Assembly (NCBI GenBank): GCA_032718475.1
Contig: JAUCBJ010006656.1
Span: 1-64,000 of the forward strand
Direction: 5' to 3'
DNA length: 64,000 nucleotides
From: Nemertoderma westbladi
Lineage: Eukaryota > Animalia > Xenacoelomorpha
The first letter of the stretch is position 1. Every line of letters starts with the position of its first letter. Under the pieces are notes generated by a model that made no database searches, was not told the DNA's origin, and saw only the letters and a program-made list of their open reading frames with translations. This document shows positions 14,012-40,509 of the stretch, piece by piece. The position numbers were made by a program, and so were the translations under genes.

Positions 14012-14506
14012 AGGAGAGCATTGTACGAAACGAGTTAAACGCTATTCTATAAAGATCAAAAAAGAAACCTGCGTTTGTTCAGATAAACGTAAGTTATAAC
14101 AGTAAGTCCAATCGATAAACGAATTGGCCTTATCTCAGTTCGATTGGGAAATCTCGAAACTCTAAGAAGATATCAAGCTTAGAAAATCCTATTCTCTGCG
14201 AGAGTTTTGGACGAACGTATCCCATGACAAGCGGAGGAAAATCAGCTCGAGGAGAAGCATATCGAAATGGACGAGACACCGACCGTAAACCCAAACCTTC
14301 TAATGCAATTGTATTGCACCCTTTACCCAGAGTTATAGCCTTTCTAGTAAAGTGGCTCGCCCCAAAGAGAAAAGGACTCTTGCTGGCCTCGGGAAACTGC
14401 GTGAACGCCGTCCGCGCAAGAAAACTAACTGTTTAGAGTATCTTTATGTTTTAGAAACTGTGATTTTTATATTTTATAGACTGAAAATCCCATTTTCTGG
14501 GAGCGG

Positions 14507-15719: not shown

Positions 15720-16434
15720 GTAATGGGCCTAACTTCCTAATTCATATCCTCAACAATCAGTCCCAGACCAATAGACCAAGCTATTCCAGTACACAGGCAA
15801 ATAGGCCTATTAACTAACCCGCTATTACTATATATGTGACAGGTACGGTACCCGGTAGGCTTCCCTACATAATTTATTATACAGTATACAGCAGTACACA
15901 ACAAATAATAGGCATACCTGATAAGAAATTAATATTTAATTTGGCGACAATTTTATTCAATAATTTCGTGAATTGTCTTATAGAAAAGCAACGCGCGCCT
16001 TATTTTATCTAAAAGTTGATACCCGGGGTTATTTTTTTGTGCTCTTTCTATTTTCGACTGTATTCGATTGTGTTCGGCAGTTTTTGGAGTGTGTTGGGGT
16101 GTATCTGCAAATCCTGCAAATCATTGTAAACAAATACACATATTACTGCAATTAGTAATCCTGTTACCGTTAGGGCCGACCGGTAAACTGGTATGAGCAT
16201 TGTTATGTTATGGGTAAAATAAATATTAATTTAGCGATGTTATATGCACCAAAATTTTCATTTTATTAAAATACTTAATCAAATACAATATTTATTTTCA
16301 CCTGGGTGGTAGTACAATATTTAACTATAATATCCATCTGGGATTCCCCGAAAAAAACAATTCCTCTACATAAGATAAACATTAGTCTAAATGATCAACT
16401 TTGTGGGTGTCTATAAAGAACTAAAGGAACTTAC

Positions 16435-16492
16435 CCGGAATCTCAGCTAAAAGTACAATCAATAACGCAACAAAATAGTATAACTTGGTCAT
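16435..16492 (-). CDS. Signal-peptide exon (MTKLYYFVALLIVLLAEIP) of small secreted peptide gene, copy A; terminal exon expected left of the window
   Basis: Acceptor TTTTGTCAG, ATG, hydrophobic stretch and phase-1 donor G|GTAAGT. Identical to 35974-36031. Confidence 0.7.
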
Positions 16493-16659: not shown

Positions 16660-16950
16660 ATGGTTCACATCTGCTCCCATGCACTCATTACCTTCCTATA
16701 TGTGGATGTCTAAAAGGACACGTCGTCACTATCCTGCACTCATTAAATATCTTCCTTCCTATATGTTTGATGACTAAAAGGTTGTCACCATCCTGCACTG
16801 ATTATCTTCCTATGTGTTTGATGTCTAAAAGGACACCGTCACTATCCTACACTCCTTATCTTCCTGTGTTTGATGACTAAAAGGATGACACTATCCTACA
16901 CTCATTATCTTCCTATATGGTTCATGACTAAAGGATGACACCATTCTGCC
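16660..16950. repeat. ~46-bp degenerate minisatellite (CCATCCTGCACTCATTATCTTCCTATATGTGGATGACTAAAAGG...)
   Basis: Tandem units visible. A paralogous array lies at 36180-36670. Confidence 0.85.
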
Positions 16951-17614
16951 AGTTTATGTCGTTTCCTAAAAATCTATTGTCTTCCTAATAGTGAAAACGG
17001 TTTTAAAAAATATTGTGAAGTTTTCTAGTTATAGCACCATATTTTAATCCTACTTTTGGCACTTTTTTGAGGCGGTTTTTTGAAAATTAAATTTCATGAA
17101 CTAAGATTTGTAACATCCTATAATTTTGATTTACACCGGTTTTTGGAGTTTGCAATTATAAGGAATTCATATAAATTAATTTACAATTTTTTGGCCGGGT
17201 GCCAAATATTGGTGCCAATACCAAATTTCGAAATATGTTGTAATTTTGTTCAATTTTGTAAATTGATTGTTTGATCCTGTTTTTTGGGCAATAGGGGTAT
17301 TTTGGGGTTCTGGTTTCTATGGAATATATAATAGTTGCACCAGGCGTATCAAACTTCTGTTTTTCGGTGCTGTATTCAAAATTTCGTGCCAGCACGAAAT
17401 TTTGAAAATCCATTCAATAGTTCCATTGTTTATGAAACTTATTTCTCGCGTTTTAGAGGTTTGTGGCGGTTCTGAATTCAATGGAATAAATAATTTTCTA
17501 ACTAAACATCCCAAACTTGTATTTTTCTGAAGTGGGTGCAAAATTTGGTGCTAGCACCTAATTTAAAAACCATCAAATATATCAATTGATTGTGTCACCT
17601 TGTTTCTTGCGTTA

Positions 17615-19122
17615 TATAGTATTGAGAAGGCAATGATATATATATAATACTGATCATTCATACCGGTAGGTCCCATACCATACTACACTACTTTCCTTCT
17701 CAACAAAATAATCTCTCAATCAATCTAATACACACATATACTAAAATTTCTAGCAACGGAAAATAGTCAATAAACAACATTATGAATCCATGAGTGTTTA
17801 CATTTATACCATACATGACTCAGTGAAATGAGTATATAGTCTAGGAGTATGTTCTAGGCGAACCCATAGTACTGCAGGGGCATATGGATACGAATTGGAT
17901 ATGATCGTACGTTGTTGTCTAGGGCGCATGGTTGTTGCTGAGGTGAGACCTGTGGCAGATTATCACCGCCGCCTCCGATTAGTGGAGCCCCGGATTCGAC
18001 AGCTGGGAGGTGAGTGTCAATAGGAGGGGTCCCAGATCCAGTTGAGTTGGTACCGTGGAATGTGCCCACAGGTTCATCATATAAATGGGCGTGTTGTGGG
18101 TCTACAGGTTGGACCATCCGACGGTTTCTACTAATGGTGGCACGGTGTCGACCTTCAAGGAGGACTTTATCACCCATTATGTCTTTAACACGATGACCCG
18201 AGTATGAGTAGCCACGCCGATCAAAGTTCTTCACCATAACAGGTTGATTAATTTCCAGGGATGGGAGAGCTCGAGCATTATGCCTGGAGTTGAAATCTTC
18301 TGCAATCTTCTCACGTCGTGACATACATGCACTACATGGCTGAAGTGGTGGCAGTGGCAATTGTGGCAATCGACCTTGGCGGTGCTGGCCAATATGACTG
18401 TAGAGAACTTTAGCAGGTATATCCCCAGTGATACGATGTTTTGTGTTACGTAGTGTGAAGAGTACTGTAGAGAGACGTGATGAGAATGAAGATTTCTGAA
18501 GAATTCTGAAAAATGAAGATTTGTACATCATTTTCTTAATTTCCCTATGGATTCTCTCCACCATACCATTAGACTGAGGATAGCGAGAAGATATTTCTAC
18601 TAAGTTACACCCAATTGTGGTTAGGTATTTCTTAAATTCATGGGATCGAAATTCTTCAGCATTGTCTGAGACTAATGAACGTGGTAGACCAAACCTGGCA
18701 AAGATTTAATCTAGCTTCATAATAACTGTTGTGGTTTTGGAATTGTGGACAGGGATTGCCTCAATGTATCGTGAACCATAATCAACTAATGTTAAACACT
18801 TTACACCTTCCATAAAGGCACAGTCTATAGCAATTCGTTCCCAGGGATGATAATCGGATTGTTTAAGACTCTGAGGTGGTAAAGGGTCATGGGCTAGTTG
18901 GCAGTTATAACAGGATGAAACAAACAAGTGAACCGATTTAGCCATTCCAGGCCACCAAACATTAGCAACTAGTAATTCCGTCATTTTAGTTATCCCAGGA
19001 TGCCTGTCATGGGCCAGTTTTAGAACCAAGGGTCGCAGGGATTGTGGTACAACCAACTGTACAACCAAGCTGTCTACTCCCTTGGTTCCTCGAGCTTGGG
19101 TACTGCCCAATAGTACTATCCC
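17615..19122 (-). mobile_element. Gypsy element 1, 3' half (integrase, PPT, 73-bp 3' LTR)
   Basis: HHCC motif (AHDRHPG...CYNC) and DDE core (IAID, SDNA, NGMVER) broken by a stop at 18706. PPT GAGAAGGAAAGTAG. LTR 17615-17687 is the reverse complement of 20311-20381 and is followed on the minus strand by TSD TAACG. Confidence 0.9.
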
Positions 19123-19800
19123 GATCCACCCCAGCTCCTTCAAGGCCGTGTCGATTTCCGTTAGCGATAGACATAGATTGTCTTTCACCTCCATTAGTAG
19201 AAATAGGCCTAGTTGATACGTTGTTTCTTCGAACAGGTTTAGAACTCAGTGCCTCTGTTTGCCCTCATTCCCATTGGTCCCTCTGATTATTTACCACCTC
19301 GGTCCATTCTCTCGCATCTTCGGATTGTCTCCGCTGACCTTGAGCCAACTGCCTACTAGTACTACTGTTTCTCGAAGACGCACTGCACTGGTAGGCAGCA
19401 TACGTGGATGAGCTCCTGGTGGTATTCGCGAAGATTGCGGCAGGTCTTTGTTCGATTCCGATTGGATTGGATGCTTGGCCTTCCAATAGTGATAGGGTCC
19501 CTTGATTCTGCTTGGAGTATCAGCATATCCTTGCAAAATATGACTTCATTCTTGGCAGCAAGAGTTTATAATGTCGCGTCAGATAAACGTCCGAGCGCCT
19601 TAACATACAGGGCGTTCATGTTGGTAAGATTCTCTATCATTGTGCGTTCATCCTCACTTGACCTGCCTCGCTTTTCTTTGGTAACCTTTATCGTTGAAAC
19701 AATGTTCTGCAGGAAGGCCGCGAACGCACTCCCCTCTGATTATGTCGCCATTACTATAATTGAAGTTCACTATCATATATTCCTCAATTAAAATCAATAA
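19123..19800 (-). mobile_element. Probable 5' part (decayed ORF1) of the LINE whose ORF2 lies at 23896-26316
   Basis: Broken coding frame with ORF1-like STYAA and EWTEVV motifs. It becomes co-oriented with and adjacent to the LINE ORF2 when 19123-23895 is re-inverted. Confidence 0.5.
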
Positions 19801-20310
19801 AGTAATAAAATAAAGTCGTAAAATTGTAAAAGCAGTACAGCAGTACTGGAGTATTTATGCTGTTATTAAGTAGGCAGGTAGGCTATCCTAATGGCAAATA
19901 AACATGTGACTAAGTGTTACAGCTGTAACACTACTTAGTCCTTAAGGAAGAATGTGAAATGATATCAACGAAGTCGAATCGCATTTCAATGAGTGAAGGG
20001 AAAAAAAGCGCAGCTAGACTACATCCTTAACCCTATTAAGTAATTTGGCAAATTTCGTACCCATCACCAAAAAGTACAAGTTTGCAATGTCCAGTGCTGT
20101 TTTTATGGATTCCATCGGATTCAGGACCCTCATAAACCCGTATAACGCAAGAAACAAGATGATACTATCTTCTGATCAATTTACTCATTTTCCAAAATTT
20201 GGTGCTGGCACAACAATTTTCACCCAAGGCCGAAAAATACAAGTTTGAAAACTCTTATGCAATTTTTACTATTCCATTGAATTCAGAAACCCTCACAAAC
20301 CCGTATAACG

Positions 20311-23300
20311 TGTAGTATGGTATGGGACCTACCGGTATGAATGATCAGTATTATATATATCATTGCCTTCTCAATACTATACTGGCGCAGTGTGTAGTTC
20401 AGTAGTTACCGGTACTGCGGTATTTAGGCTGGTCTGGCATCTGGTGTTCAGTACCGGGTTGCAGTACCTACCGTGTGGATAATATTGGCAAACATATTTA
20501 TTTGCTCGAACTGTGAACTGGCTGGTCGGTATGATTATAATTTTGATTATCAGTTTATTGTTGGCCTAACTGCCTGACTTAACACTTTCGCGGTGTAACT
20601 CTGAACTCTTTGGCTTAATCGGAACTGGCTGGCAGGCTGGCAAACCTCCTGGACTGCTGGACGGATTGTTGCTGTATTTCTGTATTTGATAGGCCTACCG
20701 CTACTACTGCTGTACGGTGGATGAACGAACATACTGGTACTTACAAACAACAAACATACCAGTACTCACAAACTGACAGCGTATTGGTACAACACTATAT
20801 CTGGACATAACTTACCGGTACAGCCCTATGGCGATGGCGAAGTACCCAGTACCCCCGGCATTGGATGTCAATGCTGAAGATATGGCTTTAGAATTTGGAG
20901 AATGGCGTCAAACATTTGATTTCTGGGCAGATGCAACCGACCTACGTAATACAGATAATGTAGAATCCCGAAAGGTTGGTGCACTGATGACATGTATTGG
21001 TAAAGCAGGTCAGAAAATTGCCATCCAAAATTTTACCTATACTGCAGATCGTCCATGCACTCTCACTAATCTGTTGGATGATTTTGCAACCTATTTTGAA
21101 CCCCTGCGCAATTTGTTGGTTATGCGCCACCTTTTTATGTCTCGTAAGCAGCGAGATGGGGAAACAGTTTCTGATTTTTTAACTTCACTGAAACAGTTAG
21201 CTAATTATTGTGAATTACAAAATGAAACACCTGACACTAAAGTTCGAGATATGTTTATTGTAGGGATTCAAAATGAAGAATTGCGTAAACAGTTGTTGCA
21301 GCTTCCTGCAGATGCAACTCTACCTCAGGTGCGCAATTTAGCAGGGGCATTTGAAGCAGCTCAGTGGTCATAAGGAACTTAAATTCTCGGGAGAGGAGAA
21401 GGGTACCACATCTGATGTACTGGCAGTTAGACGCTGCCCTGTTCAATGGCGCGAATCTGGTACTGGTGCCAGTAATAGTAGCCTAGGTAGGCCTACTGGA
21501 AAACCTCTGACTACTTATATACCCAACCAGCGAAATCGTATGTCAGGGTGGGATGTTTTTCGGTTTTGCTGTCAGTCTCATCGAAAAGGTTCATGCCCTG
21601 CCTATGGTCTGTTTTGTCAGCAATGTGGGTTGCGTAATCACTTCAGGGGCTCCCCACTCTGCAGACAGGGTCAGGGAATAGGGAAATCCACGCCCAACTC
21701 ATTGCAAGCAGTACCACCTTCTGGTGTTTCCCGGCGGAATCTTCCATCTCATAATGTTAGATATGTTGAGGATGAATTTTGTGCAGTTGATGCTATAGTT
21801 CAGGACTCGTTTTCTCAGCTTGACATTGATGCTGACCATGAGGTTGAGGTATATGGCTCAGACCATGATGATGTGTCATCATATGACATTCAGACAATTA
21901 AGCATGTCATTTCGCAAATTGGTGTTGATACATCTAAGTGGATGGTTTCCTTGTATGTATTAGGTCCATCACAAGGTATGTATATTGTATATACCATTTT
22001 TAGTGGATACTGGTACTAAGCACAGTATAATTCCCAGTAAATTCATATCTCCTATGATTATTCAATCTGCACCTGCAGAACAACTGCGTGGCTATATGTC
22101 CCAATGTTCATTACCATTGTTAGGGACGGCAACTGTTACTCTAACCTATTCCGGAGTTACAATTAGCACCAACATATATGTTGTCCGTGATGCACCCCTT
22201 TCCCTTCTTGGCCAGGACGATATAGAAAAGTTAGGCCTCATCAGCTGTCATTTTAAGCCACACCACTCAAATGTTGTCCATTCAGTGAATTCTTCTTATT
22301 CAAACATGTATTCGTCTGGAGAGAATAGAGAATTGCCTCCAATGAAAATACCCTGTGTTGATATTAAGATTAAGCCAGATGCCCTTCCAGTCCAACAGCC
22401 TATTACGTCGCATCCCATTTGGTTTATTGCCTGAGCTAAAGGAGGAAATCCTTCTTTCTTAGTGGGAATTGTTTAGAGGGAATTATTATACGTGTGGAAT
22501 CAAAAGAGGAAAGAGAAAATCCCAGTGAATGGGTAAGCCCAGTGGTATTAGCCCGAAAACCTAGTGGGAAACTTAGGCTATGTTTAGATCTTCGGGTATT
22601 AAATAAAGCAGTAGTCCATTCACGGATTCTTATCCCAACTCCAGAGGAGCTCTTTGCCAAGGTTGAAGGATGTTGCAATTTTTCGAAATTGGATGCATAC
22701 TCTGGATTCCATCAAGTGTGACTTTCTCCCTCAGCCTCACAGCTAACAACTTTTGTTCTTCCATTCGGTACCTTTAGATATGTTTGCCTCCCATTCGGTA
22801 TTACTAATGCACCCGAATTATATCATCAGTTAATGGCTGAAAGCTTGGAAGATATCAAGGGTGCTGATGTTCTGGAAGACAATGTTCTTATTTATGCAAA
22901 GACCTTAGATGAGCATGATGCAATATTAGCAATGGTAATGCAGCGCTGTAAGAATATGTCTATCTACTTAAATCCAGCGAAGTGTGAATATAGGAAGTCT
23001 GAGTTGAGGTACCTGGGCCATATCATTCCAGCTGAAGCTTGCTTTGCTTTTTTTGCTGCAAAGATTCAGGCAGTGACTTAAATGTCCTCACCAACCTCAG
23101 TGGCAGAGTGCCGTCGATTTCTAGGGATGGCAACATATTTGGCCAAATTTGTGCCAAGGTTTAGTGAGATTTCCACTCCCATCCGTAATCTGCTGAAGGG
23201 AAATATTGTCTTTTATTGGTCTTCTGATTGCGAAAAAGCCTTTAGTGACATCAAGAACCTGCTTACTAAATTTCCTACATTAAAGTTTTATAATCCCGAC

Positions 23301-23895
23301 CTTGACTCATATATCCAATGCGATGCTTCGCCTTCAGGCTTGGGTGTTGTTTTGCTACAATCTGACCCTAGTACTTGTACTATACGACCTGTTGCATTTG
23401 CCAGTCGGTCTCTGTCACCCACAGAGCAGCGATATTCCCAAATAGAACGGGAGACCTTAGCTATTTCATTTGGTGTCCATAGGTTCCGCCAGTATGTTCT
23501 TGGATTGAAGTTCACAGTCCTCTCTGACCATAAACCATTGAAAGCAATATTTGACAAACCCCTTGATAAATGTCCTGCTCGGATAATGAAGTTCTTGGTT
23601 AACCTACAACAGTATTCGTTTGTTCTCCAGTTCATTCCTGGTAAGACTAATATAATTGCGGACACCCTATCCAGAGCTCCCCTTCCTAATGCACAGGATG
23701 ACATAGGTTATGATTCGTACATCAATGTAATCCTCCCGTCTCACTTTGTGGATATAGAACAATTAGCTCAGGAGACATCCAAATGTTCTGAGGTGTCTAG
23801 TATTATCCGACGACTTCAGCTAGGTGATTGGACATTGTTAACAGAAGTGGAAGCGAGATATAAAGGTATCTTAAATGAACTGTCTGTGATAGATG
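20311..23895 (+). mobile_element. Gypsy element 1, 5' half (71-bp LTR, tRNA-Ser-type PBS, gag, protease, RT, RNase H), Mag-like, pseudogenised
   Basis: TAACG TSD at 20306-20310. PBS TGGCGCAGT at 20383. Gag 20828-22019 with CCHC knuckles, protease FLVDTG, RT (WVSPVV, LCLDLR, KLDAYSGFHQ), RNase H (CDAS, YSQIERE, DHKPL, ADTLSR). Multiple stops and frameshifts. Confidence 0.92.
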
Positions 23896-26316
23896 CTCGG
23901 GATTCAGCTGTATTGATCTGATGGAACAGGATGCAGTTAATAAAGTAAAAAGTCTATGTAAGGGGACCATATTTACAGCTGGAGACTTCAATTGCCGCAT
24001 TGACGACCCATGTAATCGTGGTGACCAGCTCAGTGGAGGTCTAATTGGCGCTGTACTACACTGTTTAAACAATCCCACTGAACCGACATATCATTGCTGG
24101 AATGAGCAAAGCACGATCGATTTGATCTTTGTTGAAGAACCTTTAATAGAAAACACAGTTATAGAAACCCTACCAACCTTTAACACTAAACACGTATGGG
24201 TTAAGGCGGAGGTGGCCCTTAATCAGATAAACCGAAGACAGCGGCGAGCTGTTAAGATAAAATACTTGGATGTCAATAAACTAGAAGAAATACTAAACAT
24301 TAGTGATTTTGAGGCTGAACTAAACAATGGTGCAATGGCAGCATGCAGTTGCATTACAACAGCACTATCGCAGGCATCTAAAGAGCAGAGCCCAAGACAA
24401 TCCAAACCGTGGTTTGATAGCAAGTGCCATGAGGAAAGAAGAAGGGTTGCAATCAAGTACAAAGAAATGATAGCTTCACCCACAGCTCAACTGCGAGAAG
24501 AACACAACGCAATAAAGCGCTCATATAGGTGGCTATTGTTGAATAAGAAGAAAGTGTTTGAACTGAGAAAGGAATACAAACTAGTTGAGGATTGCGAGTC
24601 AAACAAAGCAAAGTTTTGGGATATTATCAAACCACGACAGGTCAAACCCGCTTCTCAGCAAGTTTCCCAAGAAGACTGTACTGCCCACTTGAGGGGACTG
24701 CTGAAGGCGAAAGAAGCACCCAACATGCCCGATCTGCCGGAAAACCCGGTGATGGATGACCTGGACCGCTCATTCAGATGTTGAAATATCTGAGGCTATC
24801 TTAAAACAAAGAATAATAAGGCTACGGGGCCAGATGGAATTACAAATGAGGCATTAAAAATAGGGCTGCGACATCTACTTCCATTTCTTCTCGCACTGTT
24901 TAGCATATGCTTCTCTGCTGCTACTAGCCCCCTCCAATGGCTATTATCATATCTTATCCCACTTTATAAAGGTAAAGGGCCAGAAGTCATCACCAGATAA
25001 CTACCGTGGTGTCGCTCTTTTATCGTGTCTGTACAAGGCCTACTCTGGAATGTTGGCCACTACACTCTACCTTTGGGCAGAATTAAATAATAATCTTCGT
25101 GATGCGTAGTTTGGTTTCCGCAGAGGATGCTCGACTCTTCTAGCTGTGAAACTCTGGTACAACCGTCTTCAAACAGCAATTAACCCATCCGGGGGACACA
25201 TTTATTGTGTATTCGTTGACTTTAATAAAGCTTTCGACTCTGTAAACCGGGAAAAACTTGTCCGCAAGCTATCAGCGATTGGAATCAGCAGGAAATTTAT
25301 CACTGCAATTTGGGTATTTCTTGCAATTAATTTTGTTTGTATAAGTATTGCAGGTTACATTCTAGATGCAATAGAACAGACCATCGGGCTAGTGCAGGGA
25401 GACAAATTGTCTCCGCTACTGTTTAGTTTGTTCATCTCAGACCTTCCTGCGGTACTGACAGCGGTCTGCTGCTGGGTAATTATGTTTGCCGACGATCTTG
25501 TGATCATAGGAAACTCAATTGAGGATGTTCAAACGAGTCTCGATAGATTGGCTGAATACTGTAATTCGAACGATCTCGTTGTTAATTTAAAAAAGACAAA
25601 GGCTGTGAAATTTCGAAAAGGTGGTCCACTGTCAAGAAGTGATGTTTTAACTTACATGGGGAATCCAGTTGAGTTTCAGAACTCCTACTTATACCTCGGT
25701 GTACTGCTATCAATGAAAAATGGCCCATCAAAACACTACGACCATTTGTACAACAAAGGCCTCGTTTGCTGTGTTCGCCTAGCAACCACGATTTGCTTAA
25801 CAACCATCGGCATGAACTCAGCACAACACCTATGGAAATCTATTGTTATCCCATCGATTACATATGGTTGCAAAACATTTACTCCTGATAGTGAACAGCT
25901 AAATGAAAATGAATAAGAACATGTCAGAAAAATCCGAGGCCTATTCTGGAAAATGTGGTGCGGGATCAGTAAATACGCCTCTACAACCACAATCTTATCT
26001 GCAATCGATCAGGCAACTACATTGGAACCCCACCTTCAACCCCTGACGGGGTATCGACGACGGACAGCTGCGCAATTAATATCAAACAGGTACCACCATA
26101 AGATGTGTTCAAACGAGCGATGTTGGCGACAGACTGACACTTGCATCTGTAGACTGTGTCTCGCGCCTGTGACGAACAGCCTCCACTACGAACTATGCAA
26201 ATATATCCCGAAACTGACATCCAAGCTACGTTGTGCCATCTTTCTAGATAAATTACAATTACCTTCCACTGAGAATGATCTGTGACCGAATAACTTATTT
26301 ATTTTATTATTACTTT
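23896..26316 (+). mobile_element. Non-LTR retrotransposon (LINE) ORF2: endonuclease C-part and RT, degenerate
   Basis: AGDFNC and STIDL (AP endonuclease), KPWFD, GPDG, FVDFNKAFD, QGDKLSPLLF, FADD, YLG, a Cys/His-rich C-terminus and an AT-rich tail. Clade not determined. Confidence 0.9.
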
Positions 26317-26419
26317 TAAATGGCCTTTTATCCAATATGTATATCTATATTTTCCTTCGAAATTTTTGTTGGTGCTAATTTTAACTCGATTATGAATCAA
26401 TTAAATACTGATACATTCA

Positions 26420-26900
26420 ATTCGGTATTCAGGACTCCCTCCAGTCCAATTCGGTATTCAGGACTCCCTCCAGAAATAAGTTTGACTTTGTGTTTCGTAA
26501 TGTCCTTTATAAGTCCAGTCAGATCTTCATAAAACTTAACTGTTTGTTCTGGCTCTGAGGCATTGGTTGGACTGTAGCAACATATTACTGTTGTCTTGGG
26601 ATTCCTATCAAATGTTGCAATCATGACCCTGGAATTTATAGATTCGATGTTGTTTAGGGTCTGAAGTGCAAATGGGCTTAGCAGAATTCCTACTCCACCA
26701 ATTGATGCTTTGCTCAAATTTCTGCTTTCTGCTGAGTTTGTTACTAACGTCCATCCATTTCCAATGTCATTATACTTGATGCATCCATCATCTTCATGAC
26801 AAATACAACGTACTTGAATACAGATTATGTTGATGTAATATTCCATAGTCAAATAATGTTATCCAATTGTTGACACTTTTAACTTGTATAATTATTGTTA
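26420..26900 (-). mobile_element. Old RTE-type LINE endonuclease fragment
   Basis: IICIQ, GGVGILLS, CYSPTN and FYEDL motifs in ORF 26397-26852. Paralogous pieces at 37088-37350 and 39445-39600. Confidence 0.8.
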
Positions 26901-27142
26901 ACTACACTTTTACCATATGAATGGCAACCATCTTTTTGTAATTCTGATTTTGATTAATTGATAAGGCTGACCCTAAATAGGTCTATATTTCCTCTGTATT
27001 TCATTCGGATCCATGATTTTTATGTAACTATAATTATTCTCTGTTGTCAACTTTTGTTTGGGCATACTACTTTACTAATGAAATGACTGTCGATGAACAC
27101 CGTGGTACTTAATTTATTACATTTTATTATTATCGATTTTAC

Positions 27143-30100
27143 TGTGATAGACCAATATAATTAGGTCATACTTAAGCTGGTGGAGGGTAACTGTTTTGGT
27201 TACATATAATATTAATATATGACATACCGTGCTCCAGTATTCAGTGTACTGGTTTAAGGGTAATAGCGGTTACCGGTACTGATTAACATGTGAGGATTGA
27301 CAATTATATATAGACATGTATGGCGTTGTTATATTATATTCCTCTCTCTGAGTGTCCAGTGATCCACAGAAGGACGGAGACATAAAATGGCGCAGTGGTT
27401 ATAGACTCGTTCCTACAGCCACAACTGGATAACCGAAAACAAGCGGCGGGTTGAGGGATGAACGGACTGAAAAGTAACTGAGTTACGGGTAGGCCTACTG
27501 GACTTCTCACCGTCAGAGTGTTGTACCGGTACTGTAAAATTTACCTATCCCCTACCGCCCTAATATGTCACAGATGATCGGAGATGACGATTATCTCGAT
27601 TTATCATTGGAAGATGTCGACAAACTGGATCGACCACAACTTATCACCCACTGTAAAAATGGTGGTATTCCCTTCGAACCAAGAACATCATCTGTCACGC
27701 TACGGAAACGTCTCACGAAATTCCTTTCAACCGAAGACGAACCTAAACCTAAAGTGATGACAGCTCCGCCGACTGATCTCACTACTCTCATTGTACAAAT
27801 AGAACAACAGCGGAGGGATGACGAACTTCAACGGGAAGATCAATGCCGGGAGGATGAACAACGATGTGCAGACGAACGAGCCGAGATGGTTCAACTTTTA
27901 GCTCGATTAAATATACCTGGCTCAGCGCCGGTACCCGCCGGCAATGTGCCACACACAATGCACCTGCACGACCAACCTGGGGCAAGACTCCAACTCCGAC
28001 AACCGGATATACTCGATGTCGGTATGCGTTTTCGGCAGTTTAAACACTGGGAAACATCCTGAAACAATTACGTCCAGGTAATGAAACTATCGGATAAACC
28101 GAGGAGGGACCAGGTCGCTGCCCTATTCTCTTACTGTCACCCGGATTTACTTAACCGCATTCATTACACAATGGGTATCGCCCAGGATACGGATAAAACT
28201 ATGGATGAAATCCTCACGGACATTCGGGTTTATCTTCGAGAAGAACAAAATATCACCGTGTATCGATACGAGTTGTTGAGACAAAAACAACTCGACGGTC
28301 AAACCTTCGAGGAGTTTCATGTTCACCTCCAAGAGATGGCAGATGATGCCATGATTGAACAGATGACTCCAGATGTTGGATTACAACTCTCCTGGTTTGC
28401 GGAATTTGCGATGACGAAACTCACCGGGAAATTTTCAGGAAAAAACCGCCACTCGATTTACCTCAGACTATCGATTTATGCCACCACCGGGAGCTGGCAA
28501 CGAAGGAGGGAAACCGTCTAAAAAACAGCTCAGTCGGGGCTGTAAAACACAGCGATGGGGTTCATTCGGGACGTCCTCAATTTAAAAGTCGTTACAAAAA
28601 ATCAAAGGAGAATCGAATCGCAGACAGATCCCCATCTTCCTCGCGCTCGCACTTGCGCGCAGCTAAACTCGGACAATGCTCGCGATGCGGCGACCCCTGG
28701 CCACATAGTGGAGGGAAACTATGCCGCACTAAAGGAAAAGTATGTTCAAAATGTGGTAAAATGAATCACTTACTTAAGATGTGCCGCACACCTACAGATA
28801 CCAAGGTATCGGGTTCCATTCATATAGCACACATAGGGGAGGAGCGTAATAAACCCATAATTCCTATTAATTTTTACAAAATTGGGGGAGAATTTTTGGG
28901 TAATAAACTGTGTGTAGCAGATACTGGTGCTCAAATAATAGCTGCTGGTCCCGAGGTTCTCTATGACTGGCATATGGACCGATATAGACTAAAAAATTCA
29001 GATTCCCCACTCACTGCGGTCAATGGTAAACAAATGAAATTTAAGGGAGGGCCGCATGGAGATGGTGCTAAAGCTCAGAAACAAAGAAGTCCGGGAATGG
29101 GTATACTCTATACATTTGTCCTGAAATTGCCCATGGGTCGGTTTTTCTATCCCTATCTGCCTGTCTAGGGTTGGGAATCGTACATCCAGACTTTCCTCGC
29201 CCCATTTACCAAATGAACTCATTAGAGTGCAATGAGACACCTACCTACATTGACGCGTCACCCACTGACATTGATTCCACTGTTACCAACAGGTCACCCA
29301 CTGTCACTATTGAGACACTCACTGGTAACACAAATAGCACTGTAACAGAGAATGTAGAAGATATTAAGAGTAAACTTCTCCACGAGTTCAGTGACGTATT
29401 TGGGAATGGCCAAAGTTTAAAAACAATGGTGGGCCAGCCAATGAAAATAAAGTTGAAGGATAATGCAATTCCTTTCAAACTCTATACACACCGAGCTGTG
29501 CCTTTCCATTATCGGGCCAAAACAAAGGAGACCATAGACCAGATGGTCACCAATGGTGTCATAGAACGTGTTGGGGATAGGTCAACCGAGTGGTGTCATC
29601 CAATGGTTGTTTGTCCCAAACCCAATTCCCCTGGTGAAGTACCAATAACCGTAGATTTGACCAGACTGAATAACCAAGTAAAACGGACAGTACATAACTC
29701 ACTTTCTCCACGTGACATAGTCTCCGACAGAACACTTGGATCTTGTCTCTTCACCACCTTGGATGCAAAAACAGGTTACTGGCAAGTCGACCTTGAAGAG
29801 GACTCCCGTGACCTCACTACATTTATTACACCTTGGGGGTGTTTTAGATACTGTAGGGCACCCATGGGGTACTGGGGACGCCTACAATTATAGGGGGGAC
29901 TTGGCCTTACAGGGCTTACATCCACAAGATCGTGGACGACGTACTTCTTGAGAGTACAAACATCAGTGATCACATTGAGTTGGTACGCAATGTACTTCAG
30001 TGTTGTCGTGACAACTCAATCACCCTAAATCCAAAAAAATTTAATTTCGCACAAAAGCGAGTTAAATTTGCTGGTTTTATAATATCAGCAGACGGGACCG

Positions 30101-32442
30101 AGGCAGACCCTGAGAAGGTTAGAGCAATCCAGGCGAAACCCACGAAACTCCACGAAACTCCACAGACCATAACAGATCTGCGAAGTTTTATGGGATTAAC
30201 TAACCAACTTGGTTGTTTCTCCTCGGAAGTAAGCGTGGCTGCATCGCCATTGTGGGACCTTCTCCGAATGCGTAATGAATTGGTATGGACGGCAATGCAT
30301 GACGAGGCATTTCAAAAACGTCAAACTTGCATTAATAAAACCACCTGTCCTTGCACCATTCGATCCAGATCGTGAAACCCATCTGGAAACAGATGCCAGC
30401 CGTAAACACGGATTAGATTACGATTTACTCCAGCGCCACGGCAATATCTACAAACTAATTGCATGTGGCAGTCACTTCCTCACCGATCGCGAGTCAAGGT
30501 GGGCCACAATTGAGCTGGAGTGTGCAGCTATTAAATATGGCATTACCAAGTGTAGACTATACCTTGAAGGATTACCTGGATTTACAGTAGTTACGGACCA
30601 CTGGCCCTTACTCACCATGTTTAATTGCTACACGCTGGATCAAATCGATAATCATAAAATCCAAAGAATTAAAGCAGACTTGCAATCTGCCTACCAATTC
30701 CACCTAGAGTGGAAACCTGGTAGTAAACACCTAATAGCGGATGGATTCAGCCGCCATCCAGTAGATGATCCACAGGTCGACGAAAAAGATGAATCCATGT
30801 CACTAGGGATTCATCAAATGATATGGCAATAGGGGCCAATGAACCGAATGAGGGGACCACAAAGGAGCCATACGACCCTATTGTGGATGAACTTCGCCAT
30901 ATCGCATTGGCGGACCCTGAATACACTGAGTTAATCGATCAGATCCTTGTGGGATTTCAAACAATCCATAAGGCATCAGACTCAGTCAAACTTTTTAAAT
31001 CAATAAGGGACTCCCTGTCGGTAAACTACAACCTCGTCCTATTCGGTGATCGCTTAGTCATACCAAAGGCTGCTCGAAGCGATATTCTAGAATGCCTACA
31101 TAGCCCTCATCAAGGAATGACGAGGACAAAACAATGTGCGCGCCAAACGGTATACTGGCTCGGAATTGGCCGGGACATTGAGGCAATGACACGGGAATGC
31201 GAAGACTGTAAGCAGCGATTGCCAAGTCTACCGAAAAAAACTCTCAAGGCGTATGACCCACCTACCCGACCATTTCAGCCCGCATCTGCAGACCTATTCG
31301 AATTGAGGAGACGTCATTTCTTGGTATATACCGACTGTTGTCTGGTTACCCAAGCATCACGGAGTGGTAAAGAACACCATGTGCCAGACTAGTAACCTCT
31401 GCATTACGCAAACACTTTGTAGACTTGGGGGTTCCCACGGTATTAAGAACCGATGGGGGACCACAATTTTCAGCCCGTTTCACCAGGGATTTCCTGAAAC
31501 GTTGGGGCGTTGCCTGGAAACCTAGCACACCCTACTACCCAACCAGTAATGGTCACGCTGAGGCGTCAGTAAAACGTCTCAAGTCATTACTGGCAAAGTG
31601 TTCTCAACCCGACATTCACTTGGAGGAATTCCTCCAAGGACTTGTGGAACTCAGAAATTGTCCTCGCAGTGACGGAGCATCCCCAAGTGAACGCGTGTTT
31701 GGTAGATTATTACGAACACGCTTACCTGCCCACCATACGCGGTACGCACAGAGATGACGAGATGAGGCTGATGAAACAGACACAGCTGCTGCCTCTCACC
31801 TTGAGAAAATGGAGGAATTATTCAACCGCACCGATACTGATCTACCCAGCTTCAAATGCGGGTCTAATGTTCGTATACAAGACTCAAATACCAATCGCTG
31901 GACATATATTGGTTGGTACGATCGTTGGTGTGGGTAGAAACCGGGATTATATGGTTAAACTACCATCGGGATGCACCTGGTGGTGAAACCGACGCTTTCC
32001 TAGACCATATTGCATACCACTGAAGAAAGATTTAGATATTACACCAGATGAGTACGTAAATGAAAGTAATACTGAAACCGAAAGTAAACCTAACCTCGGC
32101 GAAGCGAACGGCTTCAAAGCAAAAAAGTTCACTGGTGAATTTACTTCACCAACGATTTAGACTGTCAAAATCGAAAGAAAAAAAAGGAAAGGGCGTTGTG
32201 ATAGACCAATATAATTAGGTCATACTTAAGCTGGTGGAGGGTTACTGTTTTGGTTACATATAATATTAATATATGACATACCGTGCTCCAGTATTCAGTG
32301 TACTGGTTTAAGGGTAATGGTGGTTACCGGTACTGATTAACATGTGAGGATTGACAATTATATATAGACATGTATGGCGTTGTTATATTGTTATTCCTCT
32401 CTCTGAGTGTCCAGTGATCCACAGAAGGACGGAGACACAACA
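27143..32442 (+). mobile_element. Gypsy element 2, full-length, pseudogenised (Mag-like)
   Basis: ~245-bp LTRs at 27143-27387 and 32197-32442. PBS TGGCGCAGTGG at 27388 and a long purine PPT before 32197. Gag with CCHC knuckles, protease ADTGA, RT (LDAKTGYWQ, VDD), RNase H (TDAS), integrase (HSPH..CEDC, TDGGPQF, NGHAE). Many frameshifts. Confidence 0.93.
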
Positions 32443-32924
32443 CATACCTTATTTCTCCTAAAACTCGTAGGATAATAAATTCTCTGGGGACTATTTTTAC
32501 AGAGTCTCTTTCCAACTCCGCTACAGGGGTCTGCCAAAAGTTACAAAATTTAGGATATAGTAGGCCTATATATATATAAAATATATAGGATTTACAGAAT
32601 ACAGAAAATTATGTGGAATATTAAAGAACGATTGTTTTTATCCAACAATTTGTATCATGTTCATCACAAATCTTGCTTCAGCGCTGCTACGAGTTGCAAT
32701 TACTCTATACTTTATCTTCCTCGGCGATGACATGGTGATTTATTTAACAAAACGTAAAAAAAAGAGAAAAAGTTAAAAGGAAAGAAAAAAGTCTAAATCA
32801 ACTACACAATTGGCTTCAAGCAAATAATGTGCGGCTAATCTTTAAATAACTGAAAAATAAAATTTCGCCGCGGCAGAAAGATTTCCAGCAACGCATATGA
32901 TGGCATATTATCTTGGGACTCGAG

Positions 32925-33140
32925 AATAGATCTATTGGAGCTCAGTATGGCGTGTTGGCTCGGCTCGAGGCGCAAAAATAGATCAAATGGAGCACTGTAG
33001 GCCGTGTTAGCTCGCCTTGGGGCGCGAGGATAGATCTAATGGAACGCAGTTAGGGCGTGTTGGCTCGGCTCGGGGCGCGAGGATAGATCTAATGGAGCGC
33101 AGTTAGGGCGTGTTGGCTCGGCTTGTAATGTGAGAATAGA
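32925..33140. repeat. ~53-bp tandem repeat (GATAGATCTAATGGAGCGCAGTTAGGGCGTGTTGGCTCGGCTCGGGGCGCGAG), about 4 copies
   Basis: Directly visible. Confidence 0.85.
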
Positions 33141-33878
33141 TCATATAGAATAGGCCTACAGTAGATTCATATAAATGAATAAAAATAAGAATGAAAAAAA
33201 ATTAATACAAATGTACAAAAAAACGTATCAAATTTAGGCCTACAGTAGTCTGTTAGTGGTTATTAAGTTGAGTTTCTAAGTTCTGAGTCTGAATTGTTCT
33301 GAGACAATACTTTTTATCTTTGATATTTTATAAAAATATTTTGGATTTTCTGGGTTGGGAAATACTGTATAATGATATTATAGATTAGGGGCTATAAATG
33401 GCCCGATTCCTTACCGGTTATTGTAAGATTGAATTTATTTGGAAAATTACTACTGTAGTCATAACGTTATTCTTTCATCCTTTGACGAAAAATTTATATC
33501 CTTGAATACCTCTTTGCGGCCAATGCAAGAATTTATAATCTTGATTTGAAATGCTGCTTCTGTTGGAATCGGTATGGAGGATTATGTAATAAAAGAAGGT
33601 GAGCAAATTTTTGTTTCTCTTATTTTTAAAGGGGAAAACCGCTATTTATATTACATATACTGTACATATACATATATTTAAATGCACAAGCGCTCAGAAA
33701 TATTTTTATAATAAATAAATATAACTTTAGCAGAAAAGTCCCATAACCTTATGTTTAATTCATAGTGTTACATTACTGTTCAGTATATCCTAATACTGAA
33801 ACATAGAGCACTAATTCAACAGCGACGTACAGTAAAAAGTTTAGGGAATTTTTTTTTACTTTTAATAAGAGAGTTCAG

Positions 33879-36031
33879 TTAACTTTCTTTCAAGATGTCC
33901 GAAACAATCATTGGTGCAATAATTTCCTTTAACGCCTCTTTCTCATCGGCGGCACGCTTCTGCACATCCACACTCGCTTCCCCGCCGTCACGGGCCTTCA
34001 ACTCCATCTCGGGGCAAAGTGGATGATAGCAACCTGATCTAGCATCTGAAATTGACCAAATATATTTTTATATATTATATAAAATTATTTACAGGGAAAA
34101 TAGCAAGGGGAGGGGGGGTTGTCCTCGTTTCGATAATTTCTGCTCACAATCCACAATTTCCATGTATTATAAAGTTCTACAGTACTGTATAATAACAATA
34201 TAAATCATAACAGCACCAACTGCAGGAATGCAATATATTACATATGCCTTAGGCATCCTCTTCAGGCAGTCTGTCGTACAGATTAAGAAAGCTAATAGTG
34301 TAACAATCTACAAATTACAAAAACACATATTACCGGTATTTACTGTTTTGTACAGTACGGTTAGGTTAGCAAATTGCCAATTGGGTTGTCGTTTCAACCT
34401 TCTTATAGGGTTAATGTTAAATTAATATTGAAAAATTTCTACCTAAAAGTAAAAATTTTACTGTAAACTGTGTTCCTAAATTTAGTTTATTGTTTTTGTT
34501 AGAAAAGTTTGCCATTATAACCTGCTACTGTACTTTCATTTAAAATAAAGTACAGGAGAAGAAATAACGCAGCTCGTTCCTCATTGTGCCCATGTTTCCT
34601 AGGAGACGTTAAACACAGCTCGTTCCTCATTGTGCCCATGTTTCCATTCTTGCCGATTAGTGGAATGGTTACATCGCTATTACTTACTAAACATAGACTC
34701 GAGTTCGATCCCGGCCGTATCTGTTAATTTTTTAATATTATTTAGCAATCATCACTTAAAATCGTCAATAACTTAAACAATAGTTTTATACAGAGATGAA
34801 GAAGTGGGTACGTTTAATACCGCAAGGAACGACATAGACTGTCAAAACCACAGCAAACTCATAATCTAGACAATCTTAGTTCCCAATCAACTTAGATCTT
34901 AAGCTATGGCTGTATGGGGTCGCTGAAATTTAGTTAGGTCCTGTATGTCGGTCGGTCTTTCTGACTATCCGACAATCTGTCCGTCATAAATATAAGAAAG
35001 AACACACCATTTAGCTAATAGTATAGTTATTGGGGTTTTCGTGGCCGCAGAACTTATTTCTAGTGTCAGTTGTAACATTTGATGACTTCCCCATTATCTG
35101 TTTGGCTCTCAGGCTGTCGGTTATATTTTGACGGGCAGACTGACAGTCATACAACTGTACAAACAAAAACAACAATGCCAAATTTGAATACTGACATCAG
35201 AAATGAAGTCACGGATCAAGATAACGCCGATATAGGAAATTTTTCCAGACAGATATGCTTTCTATTGTTTTGGAGACACATACTGACTGACCGACGGACA
35301 GACCGACAGTCAAACGGACAGACAGCTATATCTCGAGAAATAAGAGAGATCTTGCTAAACAGTTTTCAAATTTGGAATCTTGATCAAAATCTGTTATAGA
35401 GGAAATAGAAAAAAACAATTTGATATTTGATATTGTTGCTATTTCTCATATCAAATGATTATCATATCATTTAGGCAGTCTGGTACCAGTACCAGTATTG
35501 CTGTACTGCAGTAGTGTTGAACCTCCTAGGCCTACAGGCACAGGAATAATTTAAAATGGAAACATGGGCACAATGAGTAACGTGCTGTGTGTAACGTCTC
35601 CTACTGTATGAAGTACAAGCCTACAAGCATGCCTACAACTGCAATACTTGTAGGCCATGCCTGCAAATCATTGTATACAAATACACAAGATACTGCAATT
35701 AGTAATCCTGTTACCGGTAACGGTAAACTGGTATGAGCATTGTTATGTTATGAGTGAAATAAACATTCATTTTGCGATGTTTTATGCCCCAAATTAACAT
35801 TTTATTAAAATACTTAATCAAATTCAATATTTATTTTCCCCTGGCTCGTAGTACAATATTTAACTATAATATTCATCTGGGATTCCCCGAAAAAAACAAT
35901 TCCTCTACATAAGATAAACATCAGTCTAAATGATCAACTTTGTGGGTGTCTATAAAGAACTGAAGGAACTTACCCGGAATCTCAGCTAAAAGTACAATCA
36001 ATAACGCAACAAAATAGTATAACTTGGTCAT
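33879..36031 (-). CDS. Small secreted peptide precursor, copy B; predicted exons 36031-35974 and 34045-33879 (74 aa)
   Basis: Phase-1 GTAAGT donor joins the TTTCAG acceptor, giving MTKLYYFVALLIVLLAEIPDARSGCYHPLCPEMELKARDGGEASVDVQKRAADEKEALKEIIAPMIVSDILKES*. The terminal exon is a GC-rich island that ends at its stop codon. Intervening micro-exons cannot be excluded. Confidence 0.65.
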
Positions 36032-36179
36032 ATTGACTGACAAAATAATATATGGCTTGTTGCTCTAAAATTATATTGTTTTAACTCTCAGATAATATTT
36101 TACTGGTTTTGCTCCAAGTACAGTAAAAATAAGTTCAAATGTACTTCATATAAATACTAGTAGTTCCAGATAGAGATAA

Positions 36180-36670
36180 TGAAACGACTAAATAGTTCAC
36201 ATCTGCTCCGCACTCATTACCTTCCTATATGTGGATGACTAAAAGGTTGTCACCATCCTGCACTGATTATCTTCCTATATGTGGATGACTAAAAGGTTGC
36301 CACCAACCTGCACTCACTATCTTTCTATATGTTTGATGACTAAAACGATAACACCATCCTGCACTCATTACCTTCCTATATGTGGCTGTGGATGACTAAA
36401 AGGTTGCCACCATCCTGCACTCATTACCGTCCTATATGTGGATGACTAAAAGGTTGTGACCAACCTGCACGTGAGTGCATGGTTGATGACTAAAAGGATA
36501 ACACCATCCTGCATTCATTACCTTCCTATATGTGGATGACTAAAAGGTTGGCACCAACCTGCACTCACTATCTTCCAATATTTTTTATGACTAAAAGGTT
36601 GTCCCCATCATGCACTGATTATTTTCCTATATGGTTGACGACTAAAAGGATGACACCATCCTGCACTTAT
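36180..36670. repeat. ~46-bp minisatellite, paralog of 16660-16950, longer array
   Basis: Tandem GATGACTAAAAGG units. Confidence 0.85.
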
Positions 36671-36816
36671 TAAGTTCCGATAGAGGGGTGGAGGGGGGGG
36701 GGGGGGGGGGGGGGCAACTCAAATCCTATCTAGGCGACTTTATATCTCGTCTCAATGTTAAATTATCTGTTTTAAGGAAAATATGCTGGTTACAGAGGCA
36801 CGTTATTCGTTAATCG

Positions 36817-37008
36817 TTATTCTCGATTGCTGCAAAGCTTGCTGGATCTTAAGAGGAGTCTGACCTCTGCAGGCAAGATACTGTGGTCTGAGAAAATTAG
36901 CTGGAGTGAGTTGTATGCCTTGCAGTTGATCATTCTATTCCTCCACTTTTTTTTATTAAGGATGTAGCTAGCTGCGCTTTTGTTCCTTTCACGTATTGAA
37001 AGTTCCAC
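36817..37008 (-). mobile_element. RTE-type endonuclease C-terminal fragment
   Basis: YILNKKKWRN...AYNS...SDH motif. Confidence 0.6.
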
Positions 37009-37385
37009 AGCATCGACTTCGTTGACATCATTTCACATTCTTCCTTAAGGACTAACTAGTGTTACAGCTGTACTGTAACACTTAGTCCAATTCGGTATTC
37101 AGGACTACCTCCAGAAATAAGTTTGACTTTGTGTTTCGTAATGTCCCTTATAAGTCCGACAGATCTTCAAAATCTTGACTGCTTGTTCTGGCATTGATGC
37201 ATATTTATGCAACATATTTATTCTGTTGTCTTGGGATTCCCATCAAATGTTGCAAATATGAAATTGTAATTTGTAGATTCGATGTTGTTAAAGGTCTGAA
37301 GTGCAAAGGTGCCAATTGATGCTTTGGTCGAATTTCTTTCTGCTGAGTTTGTGGGGCAAGCGTCGAAAGTAAGCGAGCTTAGCAT

Positions 37386-38553
37386 ACAGGTACCACTAAC
37401 TCAATCGGTGTGTCTGTTGTTCTGTTGTGTCCAATTTTAAACGTTAATAACTCAGCCAAATGTTAATGAAATTTAAACAAACTTGGTACACATGTAGTCT
37501 GGCCAAAGTTTAGAAATTTTCCAAGTTCAATTTGCGTGTGGTCTTCGTGCAGCATCTGTGTAACTGTCCTACAGTTATAATAAATTTATCTACCCAAAAA
37601 TTATTAGGCTTGGCATCAGCTGGTTGCTAGGAGACTAAATCAGCTTGGTTTCTGGCAAATTATGAAATTACAGTAACATTGTTGGCCTGTCTGCCTGTAC
37701 CTGTACTATACTCAATCCCTGAATCTGGAATCAGACAATACTATCATACCGTATTCAGTGTTTTATGGTACTGACTGACTGTTACCGTGGTACCGGTGCA
37801 GTGATTTTAGATCACGTCTACTAGTACAGGACAGGCCTAATTCTGTAATTCCTGAATTCTGTAGGCCCTAATTAGCCATGCACTGCAGTGCGGACTGCGG
37901 TCCTGAATTAGTTTAGAGGGTCCGTTGGCGCCGTACCGCCCTACTACTGTCAGACTGTACAACCGGCTGACCGGACCGGTAGCAACTGCCAACTACATAA
38001 CTACCGGTACGGTACTGAACTACGACAGCACTATCGCATTTCCACGCTCCTGTCAGCAATGAAAGAAAATTAATTTCTTCGTTTACGGTTTCTGCTCTTG
38101 TTAACGGTTTAATATGTTAATTAAAGACTATGTATTGGTACGACCGACGGCACCGGCAACTGGTATAATCAGATGTAGATGTACATACCAATCTGCCAAT
38201 ACAACAATAGCAATAGGGCTACCCCTACCAACCATCCATCGACTCGGCAACTGCAACCATGGAAGGTATGCGGACTAACCAGCTGACCGGCATGCGGCAA
38301 CCAACTGACAGGTATCACTAACTCAATCGGTGTGTCTGTTGTTCTGTTGTGTCCAAATTTTAAACGTTAATAACTCAGCCAAATGTTAATGAAATTTAAC
38401 CAAACTTGGTACACATGTAGTCTGGCCAAAGTTTAGAAATTTTCCAAGTTGAATTTGCGTGGGGTCTTTATGCAGCATCTATGTAAATGTCTTACAGTTA
38501 TAATAAATTTATCTATCCAAAAATTATTAGGCTTGGCATCAGCTGGTTACTAG
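37386..38553 (+). repeat. Two direct copies (~245 bp) of an interspersed repeat at 37386-37632 and 38308-38553
   Basis: ACAGGTA(C/T)CACTAACTCAATCGGTGTGTCTG...CATCAGCTGGTT(G/A)CTAG occurs twice at high identity. Confidence 0.8.
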
Positions 38554-40509
38554 TCAGGTGGGTTTGAAATTCAGCAATACCAGTACAATGCAGCAATAAT
38601 GTGGCCTTGGGTTAGTTTTTGACCATTGTGGTAGGCCTATTTCACTTACAGCCATTTCAACATTTCCAGGTTGCTGCAGAGTTCAGAGTACGACACCGGT
38701 GCCATGAGATGCCTGTACTGCTCACTGATCACTGCTCATTATGTGGTAGGCCTAGCTTTCTAGACTGGTTGTCAGTCTGTCAGTGTGGTACTGCTACTGC
38801 ATTATCTGAGTATGGGTATGTGCGGTAGTGTAGAAGGAGTCCTGCAATTGCCTGAGTGATGTCTGAATTGCGATATCGCGACTATTCAGCCATATCATGT
38901 AATGACGGCATGGTACTTTAATCTGGTTAAACATATGTGGCGCCACCCACCAATCGGCTCTGCAACGGCAACCATGCAGCCATGGAAGTTTTGAAATTAT
39001 GCGGACTTAAGACAGACTGACATATTGTCAGGTTGTACCAGCTGACCTTTATTTCATGTTCCGGTATCCACTACTGCACTAGGTGCCCCAACAGCCCAAT
39101 AGGGCAATACCAAGCAACGTTTTGGAATTGTAACGGTACTCAAACATATCGCCATCAAGGCCACCGCCTCTGTCTGTGGCAGTGTCGTTGACGACCTCGA
39201 CTTTTGTTGGACTAACCGATGAGCGAGACCCGAGGACAGAAGAATGCATTGAATTTTTTGACTGTGGACTTCTATGACATCGATGCCAAGCTGCCAATGC
39301 GAAAGTTTTTTTCTAAGGTTAAATTTTCTTAATTATTTATTTAAATTTCTTAAGTACCGATTTTGGGATAGAATTGCTCACTTTTAATCTGTATCTAATA
39401 ACTGCACCTCGTCCTGCACGATGGCCCCAAGAACGTGTTACAAACGTCCATCCATTTCCAATATCATTATACTTGAAGCATCGTCTTCATGACAAATTCC
39501 AAGTACTTGAATACAGATGATGTCGATGTAATATTCCATAGTCAAATAATATTTCCCAATTGTTGACACGTTTAACTTATATAATTATTGTTAACTACAC
39601 TTTTACCATATGAATGTCAGCCATCTTTTTGTAATTCATCAGCCTAAATATATTTCCTATGTATTTCCTTCGGATCCATGATTTTTATGTAACTAATTAT
39701 TCTCTGTTGTGTCAACATTTGTTTGTGCGCACTATTTTACTAATGCAATGACTGTCGAGGCAAATCGCCGCACTGAATTATTACATCGCATTATAATCGA
39801 ATCTATTTCTGCTCTTACTACAACTAATTATTTTCGGTTGTTAACTTTTGTTTTTGCGCACTATGTTACTAATGCAAGTGTCTGTCCAGGCAAATCTTGG
39901 TACTGAATTTATTACATTTCATTATTATCGATTTTATTGGTGCTCCTACTACAATACTTCCCGTGTCTGACTGTTCACCATACCTTAATTCTCCTAAAAC
40001 TCATACGATAAGAAATACTCTTGGGACTATTTTTACAGAGTCTCTTTCCAACTCCGCATATATAGGATTTACAGAATAGGCCTACAGAGAATTACGTGGA
40101 ATAGTTAAGAACGATTGTTTTTATCCAACAATTTGTATCATGTTTATCACAAATCTTGCTTTTGCGCTGCTACGAGTTGCAATTACTCTATACTTTATCT
40201 TCCTCGGCGATGACATGGTGATTTATTTAACAAAACGTAAAAAAAAGTGAAAAAGTTAAAAGAAAAGAAAAAAGAAAGACCCACATACAAGTCTAAATCA
40301 ACTACACAATTGGCGTCAAGCAAATAATGTGCGGCTAATCTTGAAATAACTGGAAAATAAAATTTCACCGTGGCAGAAAGATTTCCAGCAACGGATATTA
40401 TGGCGGACTACCTTTTGCGGTTTATATTACATCTAATTAATTTGATATCACACTCCAACCTACAATATATTATCAGAGGTCAAACAACGTCAACTAAAAT
40501 AATAAGTAT

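Follow-up and report, generated by a model that had tools for sequence, protein, structure and literature searches.

A predicted two-exon gene for a small disulfide-ring peptide precursor, with a tandem copy, in Nemertoderma westbladi

The question raised by this locus was whether two short exons missed by the open reading frame (ORF) track form a gene for a secreted peptide, and what kind of peptide a six-residue cysteine ring next to a signal sequence would then represent. The stretch analysed, called the window hereafter, comprised 64,000 nt of Nemertoderma westbladi contig JAUCBJ010006656.1; it contained retroelement ORFs, a GC content near 40% and a CpG observed/expected ratio of 0.79, as would suit an invertebrate. 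Judged from its sequence, a two-exon, unannotated gene for a small secreted precursor, with predicted splicing, is likely real. Of the overall reading in a preliminary description of the locus, the likely two-exon secreted precursor outside the vasopressin/oxytocin family was retained, and neither the alternative acceptor with its vasopressin-like register nor any special kinship with that family was supported.

Exon model and coding signal

The transcript of copy A was predicted to run on the minus strand from an ATG at 36031 through a donor at 35973 (CGG/GTAAGT) and an acceptor before 34045 (tttcag/) to a stop codon ending at 33879. Coding exon 1 (35974..36031, minus strand; 58 nt) ran for 19 codons and one further base (phase 1) and encoded Met, a basic n-region and a hydrophobic core. 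The predicted intron (34046..35973, minus strand; 1928 nt) was of the GT...AG type, with a 78-nt AG-free zone upstream of the acceptor. Coding exon 2 (33879..34045, minus strand) contained the end of the signal region, a C-x4-C ring, a Lys-Arg site, a 24-residue acidic tail and a TAA stop. Candidate polyadenylation signals (33754..33866, minus strand) consisted of two ATTAAA (33866 and 33759), and an AATAAA was present further on, at 33439. Coordinates, motifs and frame of the in-phase join thus agreed with the preliminary claim of two exons missed by the ORF track, the splicing being predicted.

The exon 1 donor ranked first among the 136 GT sites in 36031-33879, scored against a consensus, and the acceptor before 34045 ranked fifth among 118 AG sites by an ad hoc score. 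Exon 2 was a GC-rich island (49% GC vs. 33% and 31% in its flanks). It was open for 54 codons in phase 1, 15 codons in phase 0 and one codon in phase 2; the phase-1 frame was the sole stop-free frame among the six, and ended where GC dropped. A stop-free outcome was obtained in 3.9% of exon 2 shuffles, and the amino-acid score of exon 2 was reached by 17 of 2000 stop-free shuffles. Among the stop-free non-ORF stretches of the window, 13 of 245 scored as high as exon 2, on a coding score blunt enough to place five of eight pieces of the neighbouring real channel gene below zero.

A strict scan of the whole window returned two signal-like exons, both of them copies of exon 1, and one ring motif. 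With 40 shuffled windows, the signal-exon scan at its original threshold fired 0.75 times per window and the C-[YF]-x3-C-P ring occurred 0.225 times per window, so that neither the signal exon nor the ring motif was significant alone. At a threshold chosen afterwards, signal-like exons occurred 0.025 times per shuffled window; a relaxed scan of the window listed 40 candidates. In both copies an acceptor-like ttttgtcag (36047-36032, minus strand) lay 5 nt ahead of the ATG, so that trans-splicing, or a first exon that is non-coding, is possible.

The duplicated unit

Self-comparison of the window placed the locus in a head-to-tail duplicate, which was absent from the preliminary description. The unit of copy A occupied approximately 32910..40410 (minus strand; about 7.5 kb), and copy B spanned from 32904 to beyond the left end of the window, enlarged by retroelements. 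Coding exon 1 of copy B (16435..16492, minus strand) was identical to that of copy A (58/58 nt) and had the same donor. The copy B intron (1..16434, minus strand) was swollen by insertions and retained homologous blocks at 16434-16113, 2435-1683, 1506-1330 and 167-96. Upstream, copy B (16950..32904, minus strand) was interrupted by retroelements and had colinear blocks (32904-32443 and 27144-26443) matching 40404-37084 of copy A. No second exon 2 was found within the window by self-comparison, and positions 1-95 of copy B did not align with exon 2 of copy A, scoring 17 against a mean of 17.7 for shuffles; exon 2 of copy B would lie beyond the left end.

Non-coding divergence between the copies was about 5-10%, and ranged from 1.4% to 10.5% by block: 73 of 1172 positions differed in the deep intron blocks (6.2%), and the upstream blocks diverged by 5.5-10.5%. 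One run of 183 nt (35963..36145, minus strand) was identical in both copies and covered 114 nt of 5' flank with no ATG, exon 1, and 11 nt of intron; the next-longest identical run was 84. A perfect run of 183 nt was reached in 4 of 10000 random scatterings of 178 difference events over 2596 aligned columns, a figure weakened by the uneven divergence between blocks. For the identity of exon 1 alone, P was 0.024. The tandem copy is the strongest independent evidence that the predicted exon 1 is functional; instead of selection, gene conversion could also have produced the identical block, or the copies could be alleles that the assembly joined.

A 50-bp minisatellite (36210..36672, minus strand; 9.2 units) was located just upstream of the conserved block in copy A, where it contained 5 GGAAG and 8 TTAGTCA words, and also upstream of copy B exon 1 (16654-16949); it is possibly a regulatory array. 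Inside the copy B intron there was a young Bel/Pao-type LTR element (2914-15742), with LTRs 0.9% apart (1225 matches, 11 mismatches), a 1687-codon ORF at 6375-11438, DUF1759 in the element's ORF, and an unexplained 180-codon ORF at 13064-13606 without a Pfam match. A more diverged relative started near 62232. A second LTR element (27143-32440), with LTRs 2.1% apart, occupied part of the copy B upstream region.

The predicted precursor and its possible functions

The predicted precursor had 74 residues and consisted of a signal, a C-x4-C ring, one Lys-Arg pair and an acidic tail. The six-residue ring Cys-Tyr-His-Pro-Leu-Cys (34014..34031, minus strand; predicted disulfide) was formed by Cys25 and Cys30, the sole cysteines of the predicted product. 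The signal region had a basic n-region, a hydropathy of 3.45 over 10 residues, and a -3,-1 site; it was called by hydropathy and the -3,-1 rule (as given in a passage of PMC7259759). The best signal cut was after Ser23, with Ala at -3 and Ser at -1; a cut after Ala16 fitted too, and cuts after Ala21 and Gly24 were disfavoured by Pro or Arg at -3. Lys49-Arg50 was the only dibasic site, and an amidation glycine was absent from the predicted product.

Signal cleavage after Ser23 would leave a peptide starting Gly-Cys, in which a disulfide between Cys25 and Cys30 would close the ring. A convertase cut at Lys49-Arg50 followed by carboxypeptidase trimming would release a ring part of 25 residues and net charge -3, and a possible further cut at Arg38 would shorten it to 15 residues with a net charge of 0, so that the released ring peptide would have 15-25 residues and a non-amidated end. 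Arg38 lies outside the classical monobasic context. The 24-residue acidic tail (net charge -3) may be a spacer or a second peptide. The predicted net charge of 0 to -3 argues against a cationic antimicrobial peptide.

The reading preferred, tentatively, is an orphan prohormone: a precursor cut behind the signal and at Lys-Arg to give a disulfide-ringed, lineage-specific neuropeptide or hormone. Two features of the prohormone/neuropeptide class, a signal peptide at the N-terminus and a dibasic convertase site, were predicted, and the order of signal, single peptide, dibasic site and acidic tail could be read directly in the sequence; the coding signal of exon 2, the ranks of donor and acceptor, the 183-nt identical run, the net charge of 0 to -3 and the existence of similar orphan precursors in crinoids and spiralians also favoured it. 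The missing amidation signal, the lack of homologues and the non-classical context of Arg38 spoke against it, and tandem duplication with an identical signal exon is equally typical of hormones and of exocrine peptide families. By analogy with other ring neuropeptides, the target would be a G-protein-coupled receptor.

The same precursor could instead be exocrine, which is the main rival but a less probable reading and would make the product a defence, prey-directed or pheromone peptide of a small duplicated family in which the signal exon is constant and the mature exon varies. The head-to-tail duplication, in which 5' flank and signal exon were identical, fits such a family, although only two copies were present in the window and the second mature exon would lie outside it. 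Signal and mature regions on separate exons with a phase-1 join are found in nearly all scorpion venom genes, according to a passage of PMC5308243, although that paper describes phase-1 introns as universal among secreted proteins. In cone snails, toxin families are defined by conserved signals while their mature peptides change fast (PMC9048919, in part), and a Tyr-His-Pro flanked by two cysteines is similar to loop 1 of alpha-conotoxin EI (PMC6832962, in part); alpha-conotoxins, however, pair four cysteines I-III and II-IV in the same source, so that their similar loop does not form a closed ring. The peptide predicted here is, in addition, neutral to acidic.

It is improbable that the exons belong to another chain or to a silent locus, through a frame-shifting extra exon, another splice partner, uncollapsed alleles or a decaying duplicate. 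The splice of exon 1 to exon 2 is predicted only, and four of the 118 AG sites scored higher than the proposed acceptor. Two candidate micro-exons, named in the preliminary description as frame-breakers, were identical in copy B together with their splice motifs, and for that reason comparison of the copies did not discriminate against them. The 29-nt candidate (34179-34151) would indeed shift exon 2 into the 15-codon frame, but it had another AG 5 nt upstream and would leave only 15 codons of the GC-rich island coding; the other candidate, of 18 nt (34838-34821), would be frame-neutral and would not have the effect attributed to it. Further against another chain, the phase-1 frame was the only open one and closed at the fall in GC. 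The divergence and the different retroelement insertions of the two copies might reflect allelic variation if the animal is very polymorphic, but even an allelic copy B would leave a single real gene whose exon 1 is conserved.

Quite improbable, too, is an uncut small secreted protein in which ring and helical tail form one unit of 51 residues. Helical hydrophobic moments behind the ring were moderate (up to 0.47), and Tail DREP peptides are single units made of a C-x4-C loop and then a helix (bioRxiv 10.1101/2022.08.05.502922 and PMC10501145, both in part). The Tail DREP C-terminal motif was absent, however, and a canonical Lys-Arg pair separated the ring portion of exon 2 from the acidic tail.

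Vasopressin/oxytocin resemblance, neighbourhood and known systems

Descent from the vasopressin/oxytocin family, with loss of neurophysin and amide, is very unlikely. The reference set was the 39 peptides in Table 1 of PMC7181382, counted by eye. Like vasopressin/oxytocin precursors, the predicted product had a six-residue Cys1-Cys6 ring (disulfide predicted) near the signal, an aromatic residue 2 and Pro7, the last present in 37 of the 39 peptides; Cys-Pro-Glu occurred in two of the 39 (starfish and brittle star). According to part of the same source, C-terminal extensions are found in tunicate and nematode members, and the peptide of Ciona is non-amidated. The ring interior was unlike the family: it was His-Pro-Leu here, and His3, Pro4 and Leu5 each occurred in none of the 39 (PMC7181382). 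Family rings have a hydrophobic residue at position 3 and a small polar one at position 5 (PMC7181382); both were lacking here. Family peptides end in Pro-x-Gly-amide, and 35 of the 39 listed end in Gly9-amide while four do not (PMC7181382), whereas here the ring was followed by Pro-Glu-Met, with no Gly-Lys-Arg. The bare motif also arises by chance at the rate given above for shuffled windows.

The register of the ring depended on the acceptor. A second in-frame AG 12 nt downstream (34033), also named in the preliminary description, was present; it was weak, with an ad hoc score of 2.0 vs. 9.0 for the main acceptor and another AG 5 nt before it. The stronger acceptor leaves at least one residue (Gly) before Cys, and Cys as residue 1 requires the weak one.

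No neurophysin was found within the unit: exon 2 stopped after 54 codons and gave no Pfam match. As to a further exon, the best donor inside exon 2 matched six of nine consensus letters, and none of the 13 cysteine-rich stop-free stretches of the window lay between the stop and the end of the unit. Neurophysin is retained even by the most divergent nemertean paralogues, which lost both cysteines (PMC8557429, in part), and by xenacoelomorph precursors (PMC6188537, in part). Two coding exons were predicted here, with an intron between signal and ring, vs. three coding exons in family genes (part of PMC2656470); the octopus family gene reportedly has one, vs. three in other taxa, in the portion of its source that covers it. 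Platytocin was considered as a precedent for a vasotocin precursor without neurophysin and rejected, as no statement to that effect was found in the portion of PMC8896804 covered. The preliminary description had placed the peptide outside the canonical family, and the absence of both amide signal and neurophysin bore this out; any special kinship with the family failed on the interior of the ring, the amide signal, the neurophysin and the number of exons. The likeness to vasopressin is superficial, and the predicted precursor is not a member of the family.

A nicotinic-receptor-like pentameric channel was encoded by an intronless ORF of 442 aa at 47406-48734 (plus strand; Pfam PF02931, E 5e-33), head to head with the peptide gene, 11.4 kb away and outside the duplicated unit. 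By the usual motifs, neither the cysteines of the Cys-loop nor the cysteine pair of loop C is present in this divergent channel. No relatives sharing words with it were found at E up to 1e-20, and its Atlas neighbours were generic. Intronless receptor expansions are reportedly the topic of a published study. That the ring peptide acts as ligand or modulator of this linked Cys-loop-less channel, as an endogenous equivalent of the alpha-conotoxin loop with a single disulfide, is scarcely credible, as the idea rests only on proximity and motif resemblance. A predicted complex between the ring part and two ectodomains of the channel scored 0.02, which speaks neither for nor against it. Two Ly6-like exons lie in the same neighbourhood.

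Two homologous cysteine-rich stretches resembling last exons (60467-60285 and about 56010-55860, both minus strand) ended in Cys-Cys-x4-Tyr-Asn-stop, which we take to resemble a Ly6/three-finger C-terminus with Tyr in place of the final Cys. The copy at 56 kb was shorter and changed frame; neither stretch had a Pfam match or a signal exon upstream. LINE fragments at 50600-53707 comprised two near-identical minus-strand fragments (98.6% over 772 nt) interleaved with plus-strand fragments of another LINE. The palindromes TAGGCCTA and TACCGGTA were about 14-fold over-represented in the window, and long G/C runs were common.

Searches with the exon 2 product gave no candidate in a 90%-clustered protein collection (lengths 29-95 only), no match among PDB sequences at E up to 10, two sub-threshold matches in Pfam (E 0.12 and 0.13), and no usable match in the Atlas. 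From 1.84 billion representatives, a single match was obtained at E up to 0.001; this one, P0003, was discarded as spurious, being a five-fold tandem-repeat ORF with 25% identity. A 25-nt exon-1/donor pattern had no exact match in metagenome contigs, where none of 594 candidate stretches was confirmed, and Rfam had no match in 32900-41000. In full-text literature, the ring and its flanks were matched in their own motifs only by radiochemistry and antibody papers (by title), and otherwise only by a conotoxin variant; the supplements of three neuropeptidome papers gave no match beyond receptor sequences. The lack of homologues is weak evidence of novelty because the lineage is poorly covered in databases, in which the best relative of a LINE ORF was 52% identical and the channel had no word-sharing relative.

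If the product is a neuropeptide, it represents an orphan ring-peptide family from a lineage that protein databases miss, and its synthetic form could be used at once as a ligand in the search for a receptor; if it is exocrine, the duplicated signal exon offers a means to pull out the whole peptide family. Since orphan secreted peptides of similar build occur commonly among invertebrates, neither outcome would be surprising; only a vasotocin that lacks neurophysin, or a peptide that acts on the channel nearby, would be.

Among known systems, the Tail DREP peptides, which occur in molluscs and annelids and are mimicked by cone snails, have one C-x4-C loop before a helix (bioRxiv 10.1101/2022.08.05.502922 and PMC10501145, in part); the loop spacing matches that of the predicted product, in which a helix may follow, and Pro stood at ring position 4 in two of four precursors compared by eye, as here (part of PMC10501145). 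In those precursors the ring lies at the C-terminus of a long pro-region, whereas here it follows the signal and is preceded by an intron; the Tail DREP end motif Trp...Gly-Tyr...Arg-(Trp/Tyr)-Gly, also compared by eye in four precursors, had no counterpart. Loop 1 of alpha-conotoxin EI, Cys-Tyr-His-Pro-x-Cys, matched five of the six ring residues, yet the alpha-conotoxin framework is CC-Xm-C-Xn-C with four cysteines (part of PMC6832962), compared with two cysteines and a C-terminal pro-region in the predicted product; given the chance rate of the motif, this match is a lead only. The crinoid orphans PCNP3 and PCNP19 share a signal, a two-cysteine peptide, a dibasic site and the lack of a known family (PMC9793003, in part); they are predicted to be amidated, unlike the peptide predicted here, and did not match it in sequence (supplement of PMC9793003). 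Orphan precursors of similar build, some with two cysteines, are described in parts of the crinoid (PMC9793003) and spiralian (PMC8557429) reports, and the predicted precursor, assignable to no family, would be a new orphan of this known kind.
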